Source of the DNA: Patescibacteria group bacterium
GTDB taxonomy: Bacteria; Patescibacteriota; Patescibacteriia; JAXHNJ01
Assembly (NCBI GenBank): GCA_043812155.1
Contig: JBDRMK010000017.1
Location: 146,509 to 210,508 of the forward strand
Length of the DNA: 64,000 bases
Direction: 5' to 3'
Below the pieces are notes generated by a model. That model saw only the letters and a program-made list of their open reading frames with translations, had not been told where the DNA came from and searched no databases. This document shows, one piece after another, positions 3,611 to 61,023 of this stretch. A program made the position numbers and the translations under genes. Each line of letters starts with the position of its first letter. Positions within the stretch are counted from its first letter, which is position 1.

Positions 3611-3656
3611 ATTTGGACTGTGATTTACGACGTATCTTTCAAAAAGATAAAATCTT

Positions 3657-3848
3657 TTAGAAATCTCGGCGTCTTCCACCACCGCCACCAGTACGGTTGT
3701 TCCGTCTCTGGCGATGGCAATCACGGCAGTAAACAGGGCGGGTGCCATCAGGTTCGAAGGGTAGTTCCGTGATTTGAGCGCCGCATCCAGCGCATGTCCA
3801 ATTGCCTTGGTACATTTTTCTCTGACCAAAGCCTTGGGAATCATCCAT
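3657..3848 (-). CDS. CxxC-x17-CxxC zinc-ribbon domain protein
   Basis: WTCAGCGAQITELPFEPDGTRPVYCRDCHRQRR matches the CxxC-x17-CxxC ribbon signature, followed by a Gly/Arg-rich tail. The stop leaves room for the 3578 hairpin; the overlapping alternative frame runs through that hairpin. Confidence 0.5.
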   Translation of the reverse strand: MDDSQGFGQRKMYQGNWTCAGCGAQITELPFEPDGTRPVYCRDCHRQRRNNRTGGGGGRRRDF

Positions 3849-23621: not shown

Positions 23622-23664
23622 GCGTTTTTGGTTGATTAGTTAATTAAGAGAATTAAGTAATTGA

Positions 23665-23790
23665 GAAATTAAGAGTTTTTGAGCATTGGAATTTTGAAAT
23701 TGTTTGGGATTTGATGCTTGAAATTTGGAATTTATAACCATACCTATAACCTTACCAGCTGCCAAACCTTAATTCCAAAACCAAAACAAC
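23665..23790. repeat. AT-rich dispersed repeat (AAATTCCAATG family), copy in reverse orientation
   Basis: GAGCATTGGAATTTTGAAATTG... is the reverse complement of the 9115 and 45740 copies. Confidence 0.55.
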
Positions 23791-23793
23791 GAT

Positions 23794-29880: not shown

Positions 29881-30177
29881 GGCGCTCACTCCCATTTGCA
29901 CGCGGGAGTTTTATGAAATGAACAAAATAAAAGCCTCACGCTTTGTGAGACTTTTTTACTTCAACATAACCAAACATCACCCCTTTTGTGCCGGTTTCGC
30001 TCTATAACGCCCCCGATAACGGGATTTCCTCTCCAATCCACTTAGCGACCGCATAGGACTAAAGAGTTTCTTTGGCGTCTCACAAAGGTTTACTAACCTA
30101 CTGTTGTGAATTAACAAAGCCTATATTTTAGGCTGGAGCTATCTTAGCTTATTTTCGCTTTTCTGTCAAGAGGCTTA

Positions 30178-30706
30178 TTAGATATTAAGCGATTAAGCGA
30201 TCAAGATATTGAGATTTTTTTGAGAGATTATAAATAAGACTGTTAATGCCTTTTATCAGGCCATTGTAACTCTCGTCAAGAATTTTAAAATTTCTTTCAG
30301 TCATGTAATGCTGACTTAAAGCAATCCTTAAATGGCTTTGAATTTCGTAAATTTCTCCCCGGCTGATATAGAGAATGCGGAATTTATCCTTATAATGGAA
30401 CCGGCCCTGGCTTTCCGCGATATTAGCCGCCACGGAAACGGCGGCTCGTCTCATCTGCGTGGTTAAACCAAAAATCTCGTCTTTGGGAAAAACGCGGGTT
30501 ACCTTGTAAATTTGTTCCGCCAAGCTTTGAGCTTTTTGCCAAATCTTTAAATCAAAAAAAGCGCGAGCCATATTTATTCCTTTCGCGCCACCATTTGTCT
30601 ATTTATATTTTAACTGAAGTCTTTAATAAGTCAAGTCCATTTATTCGCTCAGCATCTTAATCGCTTAATCGCTCACTCGCTCAATATCTCAATCACTTAA
30701 TATCTA
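30178..30706. mobile_element. TIR-flanked cassette carrying the four-helix-bundle gene
   Basis: Outer 12-mers TTAGATATTAAG (30178-30189) and CTTAATATCTAG (30695-30706) are inverted. Inner shared blocks CGATTAAGCGAT and ATCGCTTAATCG and a CAATATCT motif complete the imperfect TIRs. The outer ends supply the stop codons of both flanking ORFs. Confidence 0.5.
30185..30571 (-). CDS. four-helix-bundle protein (TIGR02436; '23S rRNA intervening-sequence protein' family)
   Basis: 128 aa with the characteristic pattern (IWQKAxxLA...AAxSVAANIAES...ISRGEIYEIQSHL). Confidence 0.8.
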   Translation of the reverse strand: MARAFFDLKIWQKAQSLAEQIYKVTRVFPKDEIFGLTTQMRRAAVSVAANIAESQGRFHYKDKFRILYISRGEIYEIQSHLRIALSQHYMTERNFKILDESYNGLIKGINSLIYNLSKKSQYLDRLIA

Positions 30707-31327
30707 GACATCTTTTTCCATAATCACCACTTCCGCCTGCACCGCTTGTTTCAAATTTATCGCGTCTTCGGCTGACCCGGCCGCTTCCCCGTAATGCATC
30801 GGAATAACTGTTTTCGGCGCAATGGCTTGGACGGCTTCGGCCGCTTCCTGCCAGTTCATGGTATAAGTGCCGCCGACCGGCAACATGGCGATACTGATAT
30901 TTTTCAGTTCTTTCATTTCAGGGATAAAATCCGTGTCCCCGGCGTGATATATCCGCTGGCCGTCAATTTCCAAAATAAAGCCCAGGCCGCCGCTTTCTTT
31001 CGGATGAAATTCTTTATTAATATTATAGGCCGGCACGACTTCAATTTTTAGGCCTTCAACCGTCAATGTGTCGCCGGGCTTAAGCGTCCTCACCTTTCCG
31101 CCGATCTTCGGAGCCACTTCAGCCTGACAAAAGATCAGGGTCTTTTCGCCCCGGATCTTGGCGATGCTTTCCGGCGAAAAATGGTCAAAATGGCTGTGAG
31201 TGATAAAAATAAAATCGGCCATCGGCGCCGTGCCTGGAATTTTATAGGGATCAAGATAAATTGTTTTTCCTTGCTTGGTGATTATTTTGAAACCCGATTG
31301 GCCCAGCCATTTTATATTTTCCCGCAT
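30704..31327 (-). CDS. MBL-fold metallo-hydrolase
   Basis: HSHFDH metal-binding motif and MBL beta-sandwich pattern. Confidence 0.75.
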   Translation of the reverse strand: MRENIKWLGQSGFKIITKQGKTIYLDPYKIPGTAPMADFIFITHSHFDHFSPESIAKIRGEKTLIFCQAEVAPKIGGKVRTLKPGDTLTVEGLKIEVVPAYNINKEFHPKESGGLGFILEIDGQRIYHAGDTDFIPEMKELKNISIAMLPVGGTYTMNWQEAAEAVQAIAPKTVIPMHYGEAAGSAEDAINLKQAVQAEVVIMEKDV

Positions 31328-33349: not shown

Positions 33350-36300
33350 TTAAGGAATGGATAATTGCCAGCCGATTTGGATGACGCCGGGATTTGAGGA
33401 TAAAGTCGGATAAACGAATTTATTCGCCTCAATAATCTTAGTATAATCGCGTCCGTTCCCGTAGAATCTTTCCGCGAGCTTCCACAAGGAATCGCCGGCC
33501 GCCACCGTGTATTTTACTTTACCGATAAATTGAAATACTGTTTCAGAAAATACATCAGCCGCCGAAGTTTTGGTAAAATTTAAGGCATTGGAAATCCTAG
33601 AGGATTTGCCGTTCAAATCAAAGGCGCGGACGGTAATTTCGTAACTTCCCTGGCCCAAACCGGAAACCGGCAGAGAATAAGCGAAAGAAGGCGTTTCATT
33701 AAGAGCGTTATTTACTACGGCGAATTCGTCCACGTATTGGCCGTCAACATAAACCTTGATCAAAGAATCATTGCGCGCCACGCCGCGGATGATCACTTCG
33801 GGATTGGTTCCGTCCTTGAAAATCGGCTCAAAAAGCGTGGGCGTGATATAAGGCAAAGCCACGGTAAAATAAATTTTTGGCGATCGATCCGAATAAACTC
33901 CGTCCGCATTGCGGGCGATCGTATATACGCTATGCACCCCGTTGGATAAATTCCTTCTTATTTTATAGAAAAATGAGCCGGTATCGGAAGGATGATCAGT
34001 GGAAAGAACCGTTTTTTCCAGATCATTATCAATAAAAATAAAAATAGTGTTATTAGAACGGGCCAGGCCGGTGATCGTCGGGCTTGAGGTGTCGATCGTA
34101 CTGTCGGCCTCTGGAAAAACAATGGTCGGCGAAGCCAAATAGGCCGACTCAGCCGCCAAAATAAATGTTTTGTCCGTTTCAAAAGCCGCCGTGTTGCCCG
34201 TGCTGAAAACTTTATAATGATAAGTCGTGCTGGCGGTCAATCCAGTAATCGTTATTTCATGAAGAGTGGTCAGGGTCGCACTGCTTGCCTCGCTTCCGTA
34301 ATCCGTGGTCAAGCCGTAAAGAACCCGGGAATCCGCCGCGTGATTGGTCGTCCAGGAGATTTTTACTGAAGTCGAAGAAAGCTGAGTCGCCGCCACGTTG
34401 CTGATGACCGTCCGGTCGCTGGTCACGATCGCTTCGGTTGTTGAATATTCGCTTTCAACGCCGTCCCCGTTTTTCGCTTTTACTTGAAAACTATAGGTAG
34501 TTTCCGGAGACAAACCGGTAATCGTTATGCCGCTGCTTCCCCAGACTGCTTGCGTCTGCCAGACCGCGGCCGGACCCAAAGAACCATCGGCTTGAACGTA
34601 ATTTCCCGTGCCAGCTTCATAAATCGCAAAAGATGTCGCCGCCGGATTATCATTATTATTGATCGATAGAGTCACGGTCGTCGCCGTAGAAACCAGGGTC
34701 GGTGTCCCCGGCACGTTGGCCAAAGTGTAGACCGAAGCAGAGGTCCCGTAGGAACTGGTGTTGCCCTGACTGTCGGTAAACCTGACATCGTAAGTATATT
34801 GAGTGTTGGGATTTAAAGAAGAATCGGTCTTTGTGCTTGTGCTGTTTGAGACGGCGGTTAAAGCGGTTGTGCCGTCCCTTCTTACCTGCCAGGTAGAAAG
34901 ACCGGACCCGTTTTCCGTCACGCTTGAAGGTTTGTTTAAGACAATGGAACTTGAAGTAAGGGTGCCGAAAGTGGGAGCGCCGACGCTTGAGGGAGCTTTA
35001 TTATCCACTCCAAAAGCCGAGGAAGTAGCCCAGGCGCTGGCGTTATCCGTACCGTCATTAGGCCTCACTTGCAAGTAAACGCTTGAATCCTCGGTATCGG
35101 CTAAATCCGTGGCGCTATCCCAAGCAAAAACATGGTCTTCACCCGGACTGGCTGAAGCAGTTAAGCCGGTTAAACCATCTCCTCCGGCAGTCATGGTCGC
35201 GTCTGTCCAGGAAGAACCGTCAACGGAATATTCAAGGCCTGAAGAAGCACCCTGAGAAATATTTGAAGTATCGCTGTCATAATCAACCAGATTGTAATTG
35301 ACCGAAATATCTCCTGACTGCCAGGTGGAAAAATCATCGTCAAAAGTGGCCTCAGGGTAATTATTCAAAGTCAGGGAAAGATTATCCAAAGAGACTTCTT
35401 GAGTGCCGTCGGAATGGAAAAAGGCCCGAATCAGAAGTTGGCCAGAGCCGGCCGGAAAAGTCGAGACATTCGTATCGATGTCAGAAGCTGTATTGGCTTG
35501 GCTGTAAGTGCCGTCGGAAGCGATCCAACCACCGCTGTAATATGACCAGGTGGAACCGTCATTATTGCTTAAAATGTATTTGATCTCGCCTCCATTTTTG
35601 GTGGCCGTTTCGGAAAAAGCGGATAACGTATCAAATGTGACGGCCGTACTATTAGTGATGACGGGGTCGTCGGCAGGATAAATCGTTTCCTCACTACCGG
35701 CGCTAGCTGTCTCTCCTAAACTTTTCCAAGCTTTATAATCATCCCATTCTGCTTCAGCATCGTCCCAAGTGTGAACTGTGGGATAAGCCCTATTAGCACA
35801 ATTAGATAGACTTTCGGTTGCTTGCTGAATAGCCTGAGTGCCATCAAGATAGCCCGTAATTTGTAACCAGCCAGGATCATCGCCACAGGTTGGTCGCCAA
35901 GTAGATTGTACATCTAATAATTGTGTATAACGAGTATCAACATTTTGACTAACAGTAATTGTTTCTCCAGTCCATGGTCCTTCGCCCATACCTGAATATA
36001 AAGTTACAATATTGGTGCTAGGTTGAGAACCCCACCACCAAACACCAATATCATTATCACCTTCATTTACATTATCATATATTCCGACGCTCATTAAATC
36101 AGTAGTGGCACTAGTACGCTTGCCCATTACTTCTAAATAGTAGTCATGGGCAGAGATATCCATAGTAGCGGTTTGATCAGCAATTAAACAATTAATGTTT
36201 GTTGGCCCAACGCCGGTTTTTTTTAATTTTCCATCAGCGACTGAAATTCTACTGGCACAATCGGCTCCAATCACTGTCCAGCTTGGATCAGAAGAAAAAT

Positions 36301-36897: not shown

Positions 36898-39126
36898 TTA
36901 GAATATTTTGACGTAATAACCTGTTTTGTAAAATTGAAAAGAATTAGAAATAAGAGAAGCCTTGCCGGAAAAATCAAAAGCTTGAGCCCGTACCTGATGC
37001 TGACCGGTACTTAAATTATTTAAGGGAATTTTATAGGAAAAATAGACCGTGTCGAGATTTTTATCGATTACCGGAAACTGAATGTAGGTCTTGCCGTCTA
37101 AATATATTTTTATCAATGAATTATTGTGGCAGACCCCCCTAATAATTAAACCGGGGCTTCCCCGATAATCAGCGACTGGCGGAAAAAGTGTCGGGCCGAT
37201 ATACGGTAATTCCACGGTAAAATATATTTTCGGCGAACGTTCGGAAAAAACTCCGTCGGCATTGCGGGCGATCGTGTAAACACTGTGCTGACCGGGCGAT
37301 AAATTCCGCCTTAATTTATAGAAAAAGGAGCCGGTGCCGGAAGAATGATTAGTGGAAAGAACCGCGTTTTCCAAATCGCTGTCAATAAAAATAAAAATTG
37401 TGTTATTGGAGCGGGCCAAGCCGATGATCGTCGGTTTTGTCACGTTCATAGTTATTTCATTTTGCGGATAAAGAACCGTTGGCGAGGCTAAATAGGGCAA
37501 ATCTTCTATTTCTTCTATTGTTTCTGCTGGCAGGGAACAAGAGCGGGATATCGCGGGTCTGTCAGCCGTTGTTCCGCAATTATTAGCATCCGTGCAAACG
37601 CGGGTCTCAAGACTACTGGCACAAGTTGACCAATCGGCACAGGACCAACTTTCAACACAGGGGCAAACACCTCCTTCGTCAATACTACCATCACAATCAT
37701 TATCTATACTGTCGCATATCTCGGTGGCTCCGGGATGAACAGCGCTGTTCGAATCATCACAATCAACTCCGGTATGGGCGCAGGTGCCTAAACTTGAAGC
37801 GCCATAGCCGTCGCTGTCCGCATCCGTGCAAGCGGAACACCAGTAGCTTTCGTCCGCTTCGCCGGAACAATTATTATCCAGGCCGTCGGCGCAGACTTCC
37901 GCCGCCCCAGGATTGATACTTGAGCTTTCAACGCGGCAGGATAAATCGCTTAATTTTGAAAGGGTAAAAGTGCCGTCTTCCTGCCAATTTACTCTTTTCA
38001 CCCGTAAAGCCCGCAAGTGGTCCGTGGCGTCCCCGGAATATTCATTGGAAATACTTTCTGTCATGAACCAAGTATCATCGTATGGCTTTACTACCTCAAT
38101 AGCGTTAACCCCAGCGTCAGGGATAGACCCTTGATAAACCCAATTAGCGCTGCCGCTGTCATCGGCCGTCAAATTTTCCGAGGTAGCGTATTGCACCATG
38201 GCCGGCGGCTCGGTATCCGACCAGTCGGTAAAAGTCAGATAATAATTACCATTATATTCCATGGCAAACGGATTTTCCGCCTGACCGCCCTTAGTGGCAT
38301 TAATATATCCTGCGCCGGTCCAATCAACTAAATTATCCGAATATGCCACATCAACAACGGCTTGGCCTCCCGGTTTGTATTTCGCGGTAGCGAACATCAC
38401 CCAACGGCTGTTTGTTTCATCTCTGATAACCATCGGGTCCCGGCATTGCTCATCAAAACTTGTGCCATCACCCCAGGTCGTCCAAGCGTTATCGCATTCG
38501 TAGATGCAGCCGTCTTGGACTACGCCGGAACATTTGCCGGTGGTCGGGTAAAGAGTCCAAGTATTGAGATCCGTGGAAGTGGCCAGGCCGATGCGTTCCG
38601 TCCAGGGATTGGTTCCCGACTGAACGCCGGTAAAAAACATATAATACGTGCTGCCGCTTTTGACAATATGCGGCGCCCAGATCGATGCGTAATAAGTGCC
38701 GGCCTGTCGGGCCAAAGCCGTACCGACATAAGCAAGGTTCTTAAAATCAGTCGTGGTAAAATGAGCGATATCGCTATATATCGAAGATCTGTTCCACATG
38801 TGGAAAAATAGGTGCCAGACGCCGCTGTCATCCTGGATCCAGGCATGATCCGCGATATCGTTTGTGCCGTCCGGATCGCCGTACGAGGCCAGAAAAGCCG
38901 GCGCCGCCGTCTCATCGCAACTTTCATTATTCTTATAGGCGGAATAAAGAGTGTCCATACAGTCATTTCCGCCTGATCCTTCGCTGGCGTAGCCGTCGCT
39001 ATCCAGATCTGTTGAACCGTAAACTCTCGCCCACCAAAAAAATCCCGTGGCCAAAATCAGACACAGAGAAATAATAAGAAATTGTTTATGTTTTATTTTT
39101 GTTTTTAACAAACTTTTTATCCTCAA
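36898..39126 (-). CDS. surface protein: five-bladed beta-propeller glycoside-hydrolase-like domain (GH43/GH32-like) + Cys/Asp-rich metal-binding repeats + conserved Big-like C-terminal module
   Basis: WHLFFHMW, SIWAPHIV...YYMFFTG and DPMVIRDE motifs. DCDDSNSAVHPGATEICDSIDNDCDG repeats. C-terminal module about 75% identical to the neighbours. No LysM. Confidence 0.65.
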   Translation of the reverse strand: MRIKSLLKTKIKHKQFLIISLCLILATGFFWWARVYGSTDLDSDGYASEGSGGNDCMDTLYSAYKNNESCDETAAPAFLASYGDPDGTNDIADHAWIQDDSGVWHLFFHMWNRSSIYSDIAHFTTTDFKNLAYVGTALARQAGTYYASIWAPHIVKSGSTYYMFFTGVQSGTNPWTERIGLATSTDLNTWTLYPTTGKCSGVVQDGCIYECDNAWTTWGDGTSFDEQCRDPMVIRDETNSRWVMFATAKYKPGGQAVVDVAYSDNLVDWTGAGYINATKGGQAENPFAMEYNGNYYLTFTDWSDTEPPAMVQYATSENLTADDSGSANWVYQGSIPDAGVNAIEVVKPYDDTWFMTESISNEYSGDATDHLRALRVKRVNWQEDGTFTLSKLSDLSCRVESSSINPGAAEVCADGLDNNCSGEADESYWCSACTDADSDGYGASSLGTCAHTGVDCDDSNSAVHPGATEICDSIDNDCDGSIDEGGVCPCVESWSCADWSTCASSLETRVCTDANNCGTTADRPAISRSCSLPAETIEEIEDLPYLASPTVLYPQNEITMNVTKPTIIGLARSNNTIFIFIDSDLENAVLSTNHSSGTGSFFYKLRRNLSPGQHSVYTIARNADGVFSERSPKIYFTVELPYIGPTLFPPVADYRGSPGLIIRGVCHNNSLIKIYLDGKTYIQFPVIDKNLDTVYFSYKIPLNNLSTGQHQVRAQAFDFSGKASLISNSFQFYKTGYYVKIF

Positions 39127-39128
39127 AC

Positions 39129-42100
39129 TTAAGGAATAATCAATTGCCAGCCGATTTGAATAACGCCAGGATTAGTGGACAAAGTCGGATAAACGGATTT
39201 ATTCGCTTCAATAATCTTGGTGTAATCGCTTCCCTTGCCGTAGAATCTTTCGGCAATCTTCCATAATGAATCGCCGGCGACCGCTTGGTATCTGACGCCC
39301 GAAGCAAACTGATAAACAGTCGGCAAAGACTCGACCGCTGATTTTTCCTGGATGAAATCCACGGCGTTGGAAATTCTTGAGGCCTCGCCCGATGAACTGA
39401 AAGCCTGGGTCGTAACGCTGTGGCTGCCTTCCTGCAAATCGGAAAGCGGCAAAGTGTAGGCAAAAGAAGCGGTATTGTTACTGACGCTGTTGGTGACATT
39501 AAACTCGCCGACATATTCACCGTCCACGTAAACCTTGATCAAAGAATCATTGTAAGCGACACCGCGAATGATGACTGTCGGGTTATCACCATCAGTGAAA
39601 ATGGGTTTTAAAAGCGTCGGGGTGATGTAAGGTAAGTCCACGGTGAAGGTGATTTTCGGCGAACGCTCGGAATAAACGCCGGCCGTGTTTCTGGCAATGG
39701 TATAAACGGTATGAGTCCCCTTGTTTAAATTACTCTTTAACTTATAAGCGAAAGAGCCAGTGCCGGAAGTATGGTTAGTGCTTAAAACCGTTCCGATCAT
39801 ATCGCTGTCAATAAAAATAAAGATGGTATTATTTGAGCGAGCCAAGCCGGTGATCGTCGGTAAAACCGTATCAACCGTTGAATTATCCGTAGGATAAATC
39901 AAAGTCGGTGAAGCCAGATAAACTTCCTCCTCCGATTCTTCAGCTGCTTCCTCGTTGGTTGCGAAAGTCGCGTCCGCGTCAAAAGTGGTGGTGTTGCCCG
40001 TGCTTAAAACTTCATAATGATAAGTGCTGCCGGCGGTCAATCCAGTGATAGTGATGGAGTGGCTGACGGTTAAATTACTGTCGTATATTTCACTACCGTA
40101 AGCGGTGGTCAAACCGTATCTGACTTTGGAATCGGCGGCGTGATTGGTTGTCCAGGTCACCTTGACCGAAGTCGTGCTTAGGGCTTCTGACTGGACGTTG
40201 GTAATAACTGTGGGCTCTAAAGTTGAAGTGGCAAAACTCTGGCTGGAATAAACGGATTCGTTGTTTGCCCGGTCTTTGGCCACTGGCTTGACATAATAAG
40301 TCTGGCCGGCGGAAAGGCCGGTTAAAGTCGCGGAATGCGTCGTGGTTAAATTGGAATCTTCGGTCGTGGTATTGCCCAGACTGTCAGTCAGGCCCCAGGC
40401 AACCTGCGTTTTTGTCGCTTCATCTGTTTGCCAAGTCACCACGGCGGTAAAAGTGGTGGTATCAATATCAAAATTAGAAACCGTGGCCGGAATCGTATCC
40501 TTTAAAACATAGAAACCGTCATTCAAAACTTCCCTGTAATTGCCGGCTGTGTCATAAACCCGGAAAGAAACATAATTTGTCCCTTGCTGTAAACCGCTAA
40601 AATTCACGGCCCAGGGCGTGGTATAAGAAGTTGCGTCATCCGTATAAATATTGGTCCAGCTAAGAATATCGCTTCCGCCCTGACTGGTGCCGATGGCATA
40701 CTGGGCGTAATCCAAAGGCGCGCCGCCGTTGGAAAGGAAAGATACCGGATAAGTCGTGCCGGCTGTATTGCGCCAGGTATCATCTCCGGTCTGATTATTT
40801 ACGACTTCCGGTGAAGTCACGTCTACTTTATAGGGCCCTAGATCCAAAGTCGCGCCGGCATCAGCGGCAACATCATCGCCGTTATAGGCCTTAACATGCA
40901 AATACCAACTCCCCTCGCTGGTCGCGGTTAATTCTTTGGTGTCTGAAGACCATTGGGTTTCTGTGTCGTTAAAGACGTATGTTTCATTTTGGTTCCAGAC
41001 ATAACGATAGTATTGGACTCCGCCGGCCCCAAAGCCGGCTTCATTGGTGAATGTAAAATTTAAATCATTTGTCCAAGCACTTTCTGTCCCATCTGAAGTA
41101 ACATCAGCGGCAGCCGCTAAAGTATATTTAGCTTCGCCGGCAATGGCGCCGTTTTCTTCACTATCGCCATTTCTGGTTTTGGCGTCAAAAGTATATTCGG
41201 TGTTGGCGACTAATCCGCTTTTCTCCCAGGTATTGGTCTGCAGCCAGCCGGAGTTGGTGGCCGTGGCGCTTTCAGTAAAATATATCCCAGAAGTACCGGA
41301 AGCTAGATTGGAAATTAACCCTTTACTAGAAACAGTAATAGCATTTTTGCCTACTGAATCAAATGATAAACCAGTTGGAGATTCAATGGAAGTATAAACA
41401 CTCCGATTATCAGTATTATCCGTGTTACAGGAATTTTGCGCCTGAAGATACCGGGTATATTGTGTGTTAGCGGATAAAGAATTTTCCTGCCAAGAAACAG
41501 TGTTAGCCGCCAAATCGCCGGATTTATTATTATTACCCGTATCCATTACCCGATAGTTAGCTTCATCAGAAATATCTTCCCAACTCCAGGTGATTGAACT
41601 TTCAGTCTGGCTAGAATGTCCAAGATAACTTCCTTCAGGTGACACTGGCATACTAACTAAAGGATTAACCGTAATAGTTTTTGTTAAAGAATCATAATAA
41701 TCTTCCGAAGGAAAAGGGACAACAACTCTGAATTTGATGGTTTGAGTACCGGCTGAGTTCCCATACACCGTCTTACTCCAAGTTGCTGTTTCAGGACTAG
41801 ATGAGCCATAATACGTGCCTGATGAAACCTTAATAGGCGTTGAAGTTGTCATCGCACTGCCGTTTACTAAACCAAGATACTCGGTTGAAGTAGTACAAGT
41901 CGTTCCCGGTGCACTGTCTCTAAAATATCCGGAAAAAGTAAATGAGGCACCTTTGCAAATCGTCTGATCTGAAGCCGGTGCCGTGACAGTAACGGTATAT
42001 GGTTCCGTACAAGTAATTGCCGCTTGCACAGTCGATATTTTAAAGTTAAATATAAAAAATGATGTAGCCAAGCCAATGAAAGTCAAAAACACCGTGAAAA

Positions 42101-59453: not shown

Positions 59454-59742
59454 AAATCAAACCTCCTCTTGGTTTGAGTAAATTTTTCGCAAAACGGCTG
59501 GTATGAACAATGTTATAATAGCCTATCTTACCAAACTCCCAGAGGGTTGTCAAAATGGGAAATGTAAGCTAAAATAAGACCATTATTTGATTCGAAGGGC
59601 ATAAGACGCGAAGATAATAAACCTGCAGAATATTATTGAGAAAAAATGCGGATTACTTTACTCTTTGTGTCCTCGTGTCTAAATGTCAAATGTCTACTGT
59701 CTAATACCAAAAGCCAAAATAATAAATAATATAAAAACATCC

Positions 59743-61023
59743 ATGAAAGTCGAAGTAAAAAAATTACCTAAATCACAAGCCGAAATGACGATCGAAGTCT
59801 CGGTTTTTGAGCTGCAGCCATTTTTGACCAACACGGCCGGCCAAATGTCCAAAGAAATGAATTTTCCCGGATTCAGGCCGGGCAAAGCCCCTTATGACAT
59901 GGTCAAAGAAAAAGTGGGGGAAGCGGCCATTTACCAGGAAGCGGCGGAGGATGTCATCCGGAAAACTTATCCTAAGGCGGTCATTGAACAAAATCTTCCG
60001 GCCGTGGGCCAGCCGAATATCACCCTGGAAAAACTGGCGCCAGGCAACCCGATGGTCTATAAAGCACAAGTCAGTTTGTTGCCGAATATCGAGCTGGGCG
60101 ATTATAAAAAACCAAAAGCCAAAAGAAAAGCGATAAAAGTGGAGCAAAAAGAAATTGACAAAGCCATCAAGGATCTCCAAAAAATGTACGGCAAAGAGAT
60201 CCGGGTGGAAAGAAACGCGGCCAAAGGCGATAAAGTGGAAATTGATTTTGACGTCTTTTTGGACAACGTTCCTCTGGAAGGCGGGGCTTCAAAAAATCAC
60301 CCTTTGGTGATCGGCGAAGGCAATTTTATCCCGGGCTTTGAAGAGAATCTGGTCGGGATGGCCAAAGAACAAGTCAAAGAATTCAAAATAAGATTCCCCA
60401 AGGACTATCATAAAAATGACCTGGCCAACCGCCTGGCGGAATTCAAGGTGAAAATGCTGGCGGTCTACAAAATCGAACTGCCTGGGCTTAACGATGAATG
60501 GGCGAAAATGGCGGGAAAATTCGAGAATTTCGCCGAGCTGCAGAAACATTTTTCGCAAGATTTAGAAAAAAAGAAAGAGGGCCAGGCGGATCAAATATTT
60601 GAAATGGAAATTCTGGACGATATTATCAGCAAATCAAAATTTGAGGAAATCCCCGAACTGTTAATGGATTCCGAACTGGATAAGATGATCAAGGAATTGG
60701 AGCACGATATTATGAGCCAGGGGATGAAATTTGAGGATTATTTAAAAGCGGTGAAAAAAACCCCGGAAGACTTGAAAAAAGAATTTACTCCGACGGCGGA
60801 AAAAAGGATAAAGACCGCTCTTATCATCCGCCATATCGCCAAAGAGGAAAAGATCCAAGTTACGCCTCAGGAAATCGAGGCCGAGATCAAAAAGACCAAA
60901 GAAACCTACAAAAGCCAGCCGGAGATAGCAAAACAGCTTGATTCTCCCGAATACAAAATGTATCTTTCCAATGTCCTGGCTTCAAAAAAAGTGATGGAAT
61001 TTCTTAAAAATCTGGTTGCATAA
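59743..61023 (+). CDS. tig: trigger factor
   Basis: N-terminal ribosome-binding motif GFRPGKAP, central PPIase-like domain and C-terminal arm. Start at the internal ATG. Confidence 0.85.
   Translation: MKVEVKKLPKSQAEMTIEVSVFELQPFLTNTAGQMSKEMNFPGFRPGKAPYDMVKEKVGEAAIYQEAAEDVIRKTYPKAVIEQNLPAVGQPNITLEKLAPGNPMVYKAQVSLLPNIELGDYKKPKAKRKAIKVEQKEIDKAIKDLQKMYGKEIRVERNAAKGDKVEIDFDVFLDNVPLEGGASKNHPLVIGEGNFIPGFEENLVGMAKEQVKEFKIRFPKDYHKNDLANRLAEFKVKMLAVYKIELPGLNDEWAKMAGKFENFAELQKHFSQDLEKKKEGQADQIFEMEILDDIISKSKFEEIPELLMDSELDKMIKELEHDIMSQGMKFEDYLKAVKKTPEDLKKEFTPTAEKRIKTALIIRHIAKEEKIQVTPQEIEAEIKKTKETYKSQPEIAKQLDSPEYKMYLSNVLASKKVMEFLKNLVA

Follow-up and report, generated by a model that had tools for sequence, protein, structure and literature searches.

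What is a gene for a four-helix-bundle protein doing between two inverted repeats, just past the 3′ end of a host gene? Few small genes without an explanation are as common in bacteria and archaea as those annotated as TIGR02436 "four helix bundle protein". To our knowledge, the origin of rRNA intervening sequences (IVS) has gone unexplained since the 1990s, and published descriptions of heptamer arrays in Xanthomonas, cyanobacteria, and Beggiatoaceae assign them no function. One such gene lies at 30178-30706 of the 64-kb stretch of DNA analyzed here as a whole (the window), where the first-pass annotation saw a small cassette, mobile or selfish, that had entered at the 3′ end of a host gene. 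The locus can be laid out as follows:

30178-30706, minus strand: whole cassette, one complete copy, a gene bracketed by two inverted short-tandem-repeat arrays
30178-30217, minus strand: downstream (3′) array of five 8-nt units (sequence, TRF, repeat search)
30185-30571, minus strand: PF05635/TIGR02436 four-helix-bundle protein gene, 128 aa (profile matches, AF2 model, Foldseek)
30572-30600, minus strand: conserved leader ACAAATGGTGGCGCGAAAGGAATAAAT, including a Shine-Dalgarno-like AAGGA
30607-30634, minus strand: candidate sigma-70-like promoter inside the cassette, TTGACT (30634-30629), 16-nt spacer, TAAAAT (30612-30607)
30643-30706, minus strand: upstream (5′) array of eight 8-nt units (sequence, TRF, repeat search)
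30704-31327, minus strand: host MBL-fold (Lactamase_B_3) gene, immediately upstream of the cassette
29925-30169, minus strand: host flank downstream of the cassette, ahead of a response-regulator-like gene (alignment with the relative L088, promoter/terminator scan)

In the sense of the gene, the units of the 5′ array read CTAGATAT TAAGTGAT TGAGATAT TGAGCGAG TGAGCGAT TAAGCGAT TAAGATGC TGAGCGAA and those of the 3′ array AAATCTCA ATATCTTG ATCGCTTA ATCGCTTA ATATCTAA, the unit type of the 3′ array being the reverse complement of that of the 5′ array (consensus YRAGNNAT in the 5′ array, its complement in the 3′ array). TRF finds period 8 at 30659-30694 and period 16 at 30654-30705 in the 5′ array, and period 8 at 30184-30205 in the 3′ array; a repeat search places the former in direct-repeat family D1 and inverted pairs I1-I4, and the latter in inverted pairs I1-I6. 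Built as they are of tandem 8-nt units, the two arms can pair in a variety of registers: the repeat search recovers one (30180-30215 with 30654-30689) that extends over 36 nt at 81% complementarity, along with several others, and in the predicted folding of the entire cassette RNA (z = -3.6) the MFE and centroid structures both have the two arrays paired. The imperfect terminal inverted repeats (TIRs) of about 40-50 bp originally proposed are thus upheld as inverted, pairing arms, but they are arrays of tandem units rather than unique classical TIRs. The outer 12-mers are indeed inverted (the reverse complement of TTAGATATTAAG at 30178-30189 matches CTTAATATCTAG at 30695-30706 in 11 of 12 positions), the inner blocks CGATTAAGCGAT and ATCGCTTAATCG are exact complements, and the ends of the arms do supply both stop codons: the TAG of the MBL-fold gene (minus strand, 30704-30706) falls in the first unit of the 5′ array, and the 3′ array encodes the last ~9 codons (SQYLDRLIA) and the TAA (minus strand, 30185-30187) of the bundle gene, which is the sole ORF of the cassette.

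Assignment of the 128-aa product to TIGR02436 holds, with 107.7 bits (cut-off 24) and 115.1 bits for PF05635 (cut-off 33.8); phmmer aligns it to 2GSC with E = 1.7e-16. The AF2 monomer model (pLDDT 90.5; helices 9-25, 36-56, 60-86, and 92-127) is a predicted four-helix bundle with a fold like XCC0516 and BT_0352, and Foldseek matches it to 2GSC (TM 0.84/0.92), 2RLD (TM 0.75/0.85), and the bAvd entries 4DWL and 8UB7; the crystal entries 2GSC, 2RLD, and 4DWL each have five chains, the cassette protein being modelled as a monomer only. The PADLOC anti-phage defence models gave no matching family at E up to 0.01. Comparison with the related cassette L089 yields dN/dS ~0.02, and the gene is under strong purifying selection.

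The internal promoter (10 of 12 consensus matches in a consensus scan) may well be functional, judging from its sequence and from the same -35/-10 pair aligned in cassettes L089, L005, L006, L182, and L183; since it lies between the arms in the Patescibacteria subfamily, the cassette's own mRNA would lack the 5′ arm. The leader (GTGGCG...AAAGGA) is nearly invariant across 7 cassettes, and its GCGCGA could pair with codons 3-4 (TCGCGC), enclosing the Shine-Dalgarno sequence and AUG; such a 7-bp hairpin is kept in 5 of the 7 cassettes, but none of its 7 base pairs shows compensatory change, and we do not claim it as a structure. Rfam matches no family at the cassette, and only tRNAs within the window.

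The MBL-fold C-terminus has the same length in L088, a relative without the bundle gene. On the other side, the downstream flank contains a conserved ~200-nt non-coding region matching no Rfam family, together with a predicted promoter (TTGACA-17-TAAGAT, 30169-30141) and terminator (29955-29929), and marks the resumption of host sequence. The neighboring genes encode DHH, RbfA, IF-2, a receiver-like protein, MBL, DAGK, and bactofilin, and no recombinase, reverse transcriptase, or transposase lies within ~6 kb on either side.

The genome scan used 9 close sequences, no block being sufficiently conserved in a 16-sequence alignment. Cassettes 70-82% identical to that of the window occupy four unrelated contexts, and close relatives in other contexts keep the order array, promoter, conserved leader, gene, inverted array. 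Related cassettes are located as follows:

L001-L005: between RuvB and FabD
L006: between UvrD-like and BipA genes
L182: between tRNA-Gln and an unknown gene
L089: MBL site

Between the window and L089, the cassette is ~92% identical in DNA and the adjacent MBL gene ~70%, with the step at the arrays; synonymous difference (pS) is 0.41 in the cassette and 0.69, a saturated value, in the MBL gene. A cassette can therefore be much younger than its host flank. L088 is syntenic (amino acid identity 86% for DAGK, 76% for MBL, and 58% for RR) and has no four-helix-bundle gene at the site, but repeat units of opposite topology are present at this "empty" site, a state that simple loss would not produce, and these gene-less repeats fold no better than shuffles (z = -1.0). 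The RuvB|FabD site is cleanly empty in L179 and L181 and retains nothing but arrays in L178 and L180; here RuvB (77% nucleotide identity) and the cassette (76%) have diverged similarly between L001 and L005, indicating that a cassette can also be a long-term vertical resident. Another related element, in L038, interrupts a dnaE-type (Pol III alpha) gene in frame (displayed against PDB 4JOM). The cassette is thus present or absent at syntenic sites, and its close relatives lie at unrelated ones. The empty-site comparison suggested at the outset bears out the insertion; in general, no target-site duplication (TSD) is found.

The layout is common to the family. Of 77 PF05635 genes, 60% have an inverted-repeat score of at least 30, as against 0 of 261 shifted controls (MWU p = 3e-24), and inverted short-tandem-repeat arrays on both sides span many phyla, including plasmid and viral copies. 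TRF finds arrays of period 7 to 9 on both sides, the upstream unit being the reverse complement of the downstream unit; 8-nt units characterize the Patescibacteria subfamily, 7-nt units most other lineages, and mean unit identity rises from 44% to 65% with protein similarity. Copy number has a mode of ~4.3 units, and a match of five units to a pentamer is unsupported. In the entering orientation, 54 of 58 units are purine-rich, and 38 of 58 contain a stop triplet, as against 12 of 58 in the leaving orientation. The bundle gene is co-oriented with its upstream neighbor in 65 of 75 loci, at a median of 43 nt from the upstream stop to the bundle-gene start, and most copies lack a promoter of their own. 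In most loci, no more than ~15 nt separate the upstream stop from the beginning of the array; we do not accept this as target specificity, intergenic spacers in operons being short anyway. Mismatches within the arms are mostly transversions (161 of 296), and the sense-strand G.U bias is weak (80 vs 55, a marginal p = 0.04), indicating that pairing is not tightly maintained; arm similarity could instead reflect common origin or homogenization. In 56 of 57 loci, flanking direct repeats reach at most 3-7 nt and do not exceed those of offset controls; in the remaining one, L182, 15 bp from the 3′ end of tRNA-Gln are duplicated perfectly around the cassette; no transposase or integrase adjoins any cassette inspected. 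Across 152 kb of other loci, only 13 arrays lay outside the cassettes, and L038 accounted for 9.

We consider it probable that 30178-30706 is one member of a class of small cassettes, widespread and able to insert, of the same kind as the ORF-bearing 23S rRNA IVS and located here between protein genes. The originally proposed mobile cassette thus gains support from the empty sites, the unrelated contexts, and the identity step relative to L089, and it withstands the two refuting outcomes named with it: relatives without the gene exist, and the repeats are no AT-rich spacer found everywhere. As for the TIR-bounded form, taken at the outset as a clue to how such genes spread, elements of this form with a PF05635 ORF were already known from rRNA IVS; new here is its occurrence outside rRNA and across the family. 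Our literature search returned no paper tying PF05635 to flanking tandem-repeat arrays outside rRNA, absence there not being proof.

Both the mechanism of mobility and the role of the protein we infer as follows: i) the cassette would usually be transcribed by read-through from the co-oriented upstream gene, the Patescibacteria subfamily presumably having acquired its own promoter in addition; ii) in read-through RNA, the arrays would pair into an imperfect duplex of ~30-36 bp, which, by analogy with rRNA IVS, may be cut by RNase III, looping out or excising the cassette and uncoupling it from the host message; iii) the 5′ array on either strand is purine-rich, usually with a stop triplet, and a stop triplet repeated with a 7- or 8-nt period stops all three frames of ORFs entering from either side, which would explain why both stop codons lie in the arms; iv) the protein, as a homolog of the pentameric RNA-binding Avd, probably binds the stem formed by the arrays around its gene; and v) new copies would be inserted by recombination at the arrays or by a trans-acting enzyme, either of which we assume. 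Why the arms should consist of tandem repeats is left unexplained by an RNA-stem model. We put forward, tentatively and as a minority reading, that PF05635 proteins and short-tandem-repeat arrays form one system, like RAYT with REPINs, in which a pentameric Avd-like barrel would recognize its lineage's own 7- or 8-nt units in RNA or in single-stranded DNA and would maintain array pairs or spread them, whether or not these include the gene. Hints in this direction are that unit similarity tracks protein similarity, that XCC0516 has an array directly beside it and its genome 186 of them, and the protomer contacts of Avd. Such a system would unite rRNA IVS, the orphan heptamer arrays of Xanthomonas and cyanobacteria, the bundle genes in cas, par, and other operons, and in-frame array insertions.

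The cassette might instead be a non-autonomous DNA transposon or MITE-like element whose arrays bind a transposase, integrase, or HUH enzyme encoded elsewhere, with the bundle gene as cargo or accessory factor. The inverted ends would suit such an element, as would the gene-less arrays at homologous sites (L178 and L180) and at 23630-23790 (the one gene-less array in the 64-kb window, where the repeats at 23615-23800 fold no better than shuffles, z = -0.55), the many gene-less array pairs of L038, the 15-bp duplication around L182, as at integrase att sites, and the 186 GGGAATC arrays of Xanthomonas, including 70 convergent pairs and one array abutting XCC0516 (PMC4692102). We nonetheless find this reading doubtful: 56 of 57 loci have no TSD, transposases and integrases are missing beside all inspected cassettes, the ends are tandem repeats of variable copy number and lineage-dependent unit, unlike fixed transposase sites, and the conserved gene (dN/dS ~0.02) is a constant partner of the arrays.

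If the gene were simply a host resident, vertically inherited, occasionally lost, not insertable, and flanked by hairpins for regulation or processing, this would account for the strong purifying selection, for co-divergence with RuvB in L001 and L005, and for the usual position inside co-directional gene strings. This reading is unlikely, and already disfavored, given the 70-82% identity of cassettes in four unrelated contexts, a cassette far less diverged from L089 than the adjoining host gene, insertions within Pol III alpha coding sequence, in rRNA (PMC4990558, PMC11270868), and inside cas operons (PMC3936711), and copies on plasmids and viral contigs.

We regard as quite unlikely a retro-mobile cassette, in which a transcript closed by the array stem and carrying its Avd-like pentamer would be copied by a diversity-generating retroelement (DGR)- or group II-type reverse transcriptase (RT) acting in trans, and the cDNA integrated. 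In biochemical terms, the homologous Avd is known solely as an obligatory RT partner, that RT acts on RNA including the avd 3′ end and a stem-loop contacted by all five protomers, and the predicted fold matches 4DWL and 8UB7; in addition, the 15-bp flanking duplication of L182 is in the size range of target-primed insertion, and most copies lack their own promoter. Against this, the neighborhood has no RT, DGR Avd models score below cut-off (NF033474, 32.6 vs 80; PF22296, 30.5 vs 40), TSDs are generally absent, there is no poly-A or other mark of retro-insertion, and the internal promoter is kept in copies, whereas copying of the cassette's own transcript would lose it and only read-through RNA could keep it.

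That the gene is itself the Avd accessory gene of a DGR is highly improbable: its matches to bAvd, in models and in fold, are weak, those same scores lie under both curated cut-offs, no RT lies within ~6 kb on either side, and there is no TR/VR-like repeat, the only long direct repeats nearby being paralogous 3′ parts of large surface-protein genes. Finally, that the arms are chance or low-complexity spacer merely looking inverted, as an AT-rich window (45% GC) and self-complementary units containing TTAA might suggest, is refuted by the controls: the 17-mer TTAAGCGATTAAGCGAT with up to 3 mismatches has 4 matches, all in the two arms, vs 0.4 expected; a unit-array scan of the 64 kb finds 3 arrays (the two arms and one at 23654-23677) and none in 50 shuffles; a period-8 autocorrelation scan finds 30653-30701 only, and nothing in 10 shuffles; more than 50 independent loci show the layout with unrelated units, GC-rich ones included; and 0 of 261 control windows reach the inverted-repeat score.

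If bundle genes, rRNA IVS, and heptamer arrays are one insertable element, then bundle genes in cas and par operons would reflect insertion and not functional association, annotation pipelines could recognize the cassette as a unit, and RNase III processing, pentamer binding, and mobilization become testable in culturable carriers. A single element of this kind would also bear on the origin of DGR Avd, suggesting an ancestral role in binding an RNA stem.

Two known elements offer analogies without any sequence relationship: Rickettsia palindromic elements resemble the array elements lying in frame in the L038 Pol III alpha gene, and the synthetic omega interposon likewise has all-frame stops at both ends, facing inward. 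The ORF-bearing 23S rRNA IVS of Leptospira and Coxiella burnetii ("S23p") encode the same protein family, PF05635, and the pairing terminal inverted repeats around such an ORF recur here (36-nt arms, 81% complementary). In Coxiella, the terminal inverted repeats pair into a 28-bp stem cut by RNase III, tandem heptamers (GACAGAT) of strain-variable copy number precede the ORF, and the patchy distribution of rRNA IVS is ascribed to horizontal transfer (PMC4990558); such ORFs are also reported in CPR 16S and 23S insertions (PMC11270868). The window cassette differs in lying outside rRNA, between an MBL-fold gene and a non-coding region with a predicted promoter, in arms that are entirely arrays of 8-nt units, and in its putative own promoter; RNase III processing would be by analogy.

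The heptamer arrays (Xanthomonas GGGAATC; cyanobacteria and Beggiatoaceae GGGGAYT and TAACTGA) have period 7, typically ~4 units, and frequent convergent pairs, and lie ~28 nt after the upstream ORF; forward TAACTGA repeats put stops in all three frames, and the arrays were read as G-quadruplex or regulatory repeats without a link to PF05635 (PMC4692102, PMC4679880). The Xcc table in PMC4692102 lists a GGGAATC array that overlaps the XCC0516 start, and XCC0516 is the PF05635 protein of PDB 2GSC. Heptamer arrays are mostly gene-less with a 7-nt unit, whereas the window unit is 8 nt and AT-rich. Like REP/REPIN and RAYT, the cassette has a single small gene between inverted repeat copies, a repeat that also occurs gene-less (one array in the 64 kb), no TSD, and an intergenic position just past ORFs; unlike them, it encodes a four-helix bundle without known catalytic activity rather than an HUH/Y1 transposase, and its arms are tandem-unit arrays rather than unique palindromes. 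DDE-type IS elements and MITEs differ from the window cassette, which has no TSD, and no transposase in the element or in inspected neighborhoods. Avd of Bordetella phage BPP-1 shares the homologous pentameric four-helix-bundle fold, but the window has no RT or TR/VR and the protein scores under the curated Avd cut-offs; the Avd pentamer binds a stem-loop RNA next to its own gene, through the same residues of all five protomers (bioRxiv 10.1101/2023.10.23.563531).

The window contains one PF05635 gene, whose 128-aa product matches the PF05635 profile with 115 bits (cut-off 33.8) and TIGR02436 with 107.7 bits (cut-off 24), and which lies between two inverted arrays of 8-nt tandem units:

30706 down to 30643, gene sense: upstream array, eight YRAGNNAT-type units
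30634-30607, minus strand: sigma-70-like promoter (TTGACT, 16 nt, TAAAAT), downstream of the 5' array
30185..30571, minus strand: PF05635/TIGR02436 gene, 128 aa, profile matches
30217 down to 30178, gene sense: downstream array, five units, the reverse complement of the upstream type

The first-pass annotation had described these ends as imperfect terminal inverted repeats. The complementarity stands: the outer 12-mers it quoted are 11/12 complementary and the inner 12-mers exactly so, and a repeat search returns arms of 36 nt (30180-30215 and 30654-30689; 81% complementary) along with several alternative registers. The ends themselves are built of 8-nt units in tandem (TRF period 8), which is why so many pairing registers exist. 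As had been noted, each of the two stop codons falls within an arm: the upstream MBL-fold gene stops at a TAG in the first unit of the upstream array (30704-30706), and the cassette gene at a TAA within the downstream array (30185-30187), which also encodes the last nine codons of that gene. Generic AT-rich spacer does not account for the arrays, since i) a 17-mer search of the window gave 4 matches where 0.4 were expected, all in the two arms; ii) a scan for unit arrays found three in 64 kb and 0 in 50 shuffles; and iii) the sole detection in a period-8 autocorrelation scan of the window was 30653-30701.

The AlphaFold2 model of the protein (pLDDT 90.5) is a four-helix bundle, and its best structural matches are XCC0516 (2GSC, TM 0.84/0.92), BT_0352 (2RLD), and phage Avd, the accessory protein of diversity-generating retroelements or DGRs (4DWL; DGR ribonucleoprotein 8UB7); the 2GSC, 2RLD, and 4DWL depositions each contain five chains. 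The invariant residues are concentrated in the motif G-L-T-x-Q-x-R-R-x-x-V-S-V-x-x-N-I-A-E, noted by Zhang and Ye (PMC3936711). The protein scores under the cut-offs of the curated DGR Avd profiles and matches none of the PADLOC defence models.

The array-gene-array layout is general to the family. Taking one genome per species, a scan yielded 80 loci at 38-82% identity, spread over Acidobacteriota, Planctomycetota, Alphaproteobacteria, Chloroflexota, Bacteroidota, Patescibacteria, archaea, and others. When the 250 nt upstream of each gene were aligned to the reverse complement of the 200 nt downstream, 60% of 77 PF05635 genes scored at least 30, versus 0/261 control windows displaced by 1-1.5 kb at these loci (MWU p = 3e-24). 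The flanks consist of tandem repeats with a period of 7, or in some cases 8 or 9 (TRF), and in about 50 loci the upstream consensus is the reverse complement of the downstream one (cyclic identity at least 0.86), direct matches being poor. The units are wholly lineage-specific (ATCGTGA, GAGTTGT, GAGTAGT, GAATAGC, AAGACAC, GGCAGTA, GGAAGTC, TAGGTTT, and others), and mean protein identity rises from 44% at 2/7 shared unit positions to 65% at 7/7 (Spearman 0.23, kinship ignored). The layout also occurs on viral contigs (L170-L177) and plasmids: a Nostoc punctiforme plasmid has (TCAGGAG)x8 reaching the ATG and (CTCCTGA)x4 past the stop, and in Geminocystis plasmid pGM3709_03 (L169, 25514-28240) a cassette with AGGGAAA x3.3 and CTTTTCC x5.3 arrays has a parA-like ATPase gene on one side and parB on the other, and hence lies inside a partition operon of the plasmid. 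On Nostoc sp. PCC 7120 pCC7120alpha (L184, 3097-4721), a PF05635 gene has a 3' array (CTCTGCC x5) and no 5' array; with a transposase gene some 550 nt upstream, the missing end may have been replaced by an IS insertion.

Proteins 67-97% identical to that of the window are all found on Patescibacteria contigs, at the following sites:

RuvB/FabD intergenic region: L001-L005, L008
between UvrD/PDDEXK helicase and BipA: L006, L009
after tRNA-Gln: L182
MBL site, as in the window: L089

The order in these relatives is uniform (sense octamer array, promoter, conserved leader, gene, inverted octamer array), and the host-gene stop codon falls in the first array unit. Three comparisons uphold the proposal of a small mobile cassette at the 3' end of a host gene. 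First, cassettes 70-82% identical to that of the window occupy four unrelated contexts. Second, as the proposed empty-site comparison sought, there are syntenic loci without the gene: the RuvB site of L179 is a clean 82-nt spacer, although its RuvB and that of L001 are 88% identical and its NIF3-RuvB-FabD-QueA synteny matches that of the filled L005; the site is likewise clean in L181; in L178 and L180 all that is left there are sense-type arrays at the RuvB stop; and L088, syntenic with the window (amino acid identity 86% for DAGK, 76% for MBL, and 58% for the response-regulator-like gene), has at the MBL site only about 130 nt of degenerate units. The latter (3620-3750) run in reversed order, complement-type units preceding a TTCG-containing loop and sense-type units that include TGAGCGAT, which simple gene loss cannot yield. 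Third, DNA identity between the window and L089 is about 70% across the MBL gene and about 92% across the cassette, stepping up at the arrays (Nei-Gojobori pS 0.69, saturated, versus 0.41). The arrays themselves differ by indels of whole units, 16 and 9 nt long, and the cassette gene is under purifying selection (dN/dS ~0.02). At the RuvB site, cassette and host divergence are about equal, so residence can be long. A decaying RuvB-site copy, L183 (3520-4010; JAXHNJ010000002.1, a 698-kb contig), retains the 5' array and promoter; its gene is truncated to 101 aa, a terminator-like hairpin stands in place of the missing 3' array, and the locus lacks FabD.

Other insertions point the same way. In L038 (1-3382; Phycisphaerae MAG JBJXFK010000096.1), a DnaE-family gene remains open for 1126 codons through at least 5 array elements, AAGGCACG/CGTGCCTT arrays sharing the core GCGCGTCTTTGTCTTCGCC, one of which carries a PF05635 gene; in an alignment with Pol III alpha of E. 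coli (4JOM), insertions of ~216, 52, and 29 residues fall exactly at these elements, much as Rickettsia palindromic elements leave the host frame open. The L182 cassette (1593-2293) directly follows tRNA-Gln(CTG), whose 15-nt 3' end ATCCCCGGCAACCAG is perfectly duplicated 1 nt past the 3' arm; this element also contains, upstream of the promoter, a gene-less [sense x8][rc x5] array hairpin. Published insertions lie in rRNA (PMC4990558, PMC11270868) and inside cas operons (PMC3936711). A target-site duplication, which the first-pass annotation had hoped to define, did not emerge: in 56/57 loci no flanking direct repeat was longer than in controls, nor was a transposase, integrase, or reverse transcriptase seen near any inspected cassette.

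An inverted pair reads identically from either strand, so only two topologies are possible. The 5' array is purine-rich in 54/58 elements (G:C = 149:48), and the units carry a stop triplet in the entering orientation in 38/58 versus 12/58 leaving. With a period of 7 or 8 and one stop triplet per unit, all three frames are closed within three units, which explains both stop codons in the arms of the window cassette. PF05635 genes are co-oriented with the upstream neighbor in 65/75 loci and with the downstream neighbor in 55/66; the upstream gene ends no more than about 15 nt from the array start in 33/44 loci, and the median distance from its stop to the PF05635 start is 43 nt. Most copies thus lack the space for a promoter and must depend on read-through. 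The Patescibacteria subfamily, with a promoter in a spacer of about 85 nt, is the exception. There the promoter is followed by a leader, ...TGGTGGCGCGAAAGGAATAAAT-ATG, near-invariant across seven related cassettes; we do not claim a 7-bp hairpin enclosing the Shine-Dalgarno sequence and AUG, which shows 0 compensatory changes.

The data show the layout, its breadth across the family, the insertional character of the cassette, and selection on its gene. How might such a cassette work? RNase III cuts the stem of terminal inverted repeats in rRNA intervening sequences (IVSs), and that of Coxiella has variable tandem heptamers ahead of its ORF (PMC4990558). By analogy, the two arrays (median arm 34 nt) would fold into a duplex in a read-through transcript and be similarly processed, releasing or insulating the cassette, and the inward-facing stops would terminate host translation at its border. 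Folded as a single RNA, the 551-nt cassette pairs its arrays in both MFE and centroid structures (z = -3.6). In the DGR ribonucleoprotein, five Avd protomers all touch an 11-bp stem-loop adjoining avd, with bases flipped out into crevices between protomers (bioRxiv 10.1101/2023.10.23.563531), and homology suggests that PF05635 pentamers may likewise bind the array stem of their own element. The RNA-duplex proposal has weak points: arm mismatches are predominantly transversions with a marginal G.U bias; the internal promoter of the Patescibacteria subfamily leaves the 5' arm out of the cassette's own mRNA; and the scheme gives no account of why the arms are tandem repeats. We place moderate to low confidence in processing by RNase III and in binding by the protein.

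The window has further features of note. Between the cassette and the response-regulator-like gene, a non-coding region of about 200 nt (29925-30169, minus) has its own TTGACA-17-TAAGAT promoter and strong terminator, shares long identical blocks with L088 despite saturated synonymous sites in neighboring genes, has four predicted pairs changed on both sides, and matches no Rfam family. A stretch between the RNase Y and YmdB-like genes (23625-23793), whose 8-nt units, read in gene sense, are first of a degenerate TAAGGTTA type (about 5) and then NNNNTYAA (about 11), resembles a gene-less cassette; its fold is no better than shuffles (z = -0.55). A solo NNNTGTC heptamer array (59660-59731; TCGTGTC, AAATGTC x2, TACTGTC ...) immediately precedes the trigger-factor gene start at 59744. 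Three large surface-protein genes (33350-34082, 37076-37435, 39129-39861; fn3 and LysM domains in the one scanned against Pfam) have common 3'-proximal segments of 64-300 nt, 70-89% identical, which we reject as a DGR TR/VR pair because no reverse transcriptase lies nearby; they are paralogous ends.

The original observation is confirmed, and its interpretation supported and sharpened: we conclude with high confidence that the element is an insertable cassette of the IVS class. In full-text literature of incomplete coverage, we found no description of a general PF05635 plus inverted-array cassette. The heptamer arrays of Xanthomonas, Nostoc, and Beggiatoaceae have the same period and convergent pairing, typically number about four units, and lie just after ORFs (PMC4692102, PMC4679880); one in the Xanthomonas table overlaps the XCC0516 start, but these papers draw no connection to the PF05635 gene. 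The likeness to REP/RAYT is no more than a functional analogy. Among described entities, ORF-bearing rRNA IVSs come closest: they share the ORF family, pairing ends, and upstream short repeats but are defined by a location in rRNA that the window element lacks. The latter is best described as a selfish cassette of IVS type that lies outside rRNA and whose repeat architecture extends across the family.
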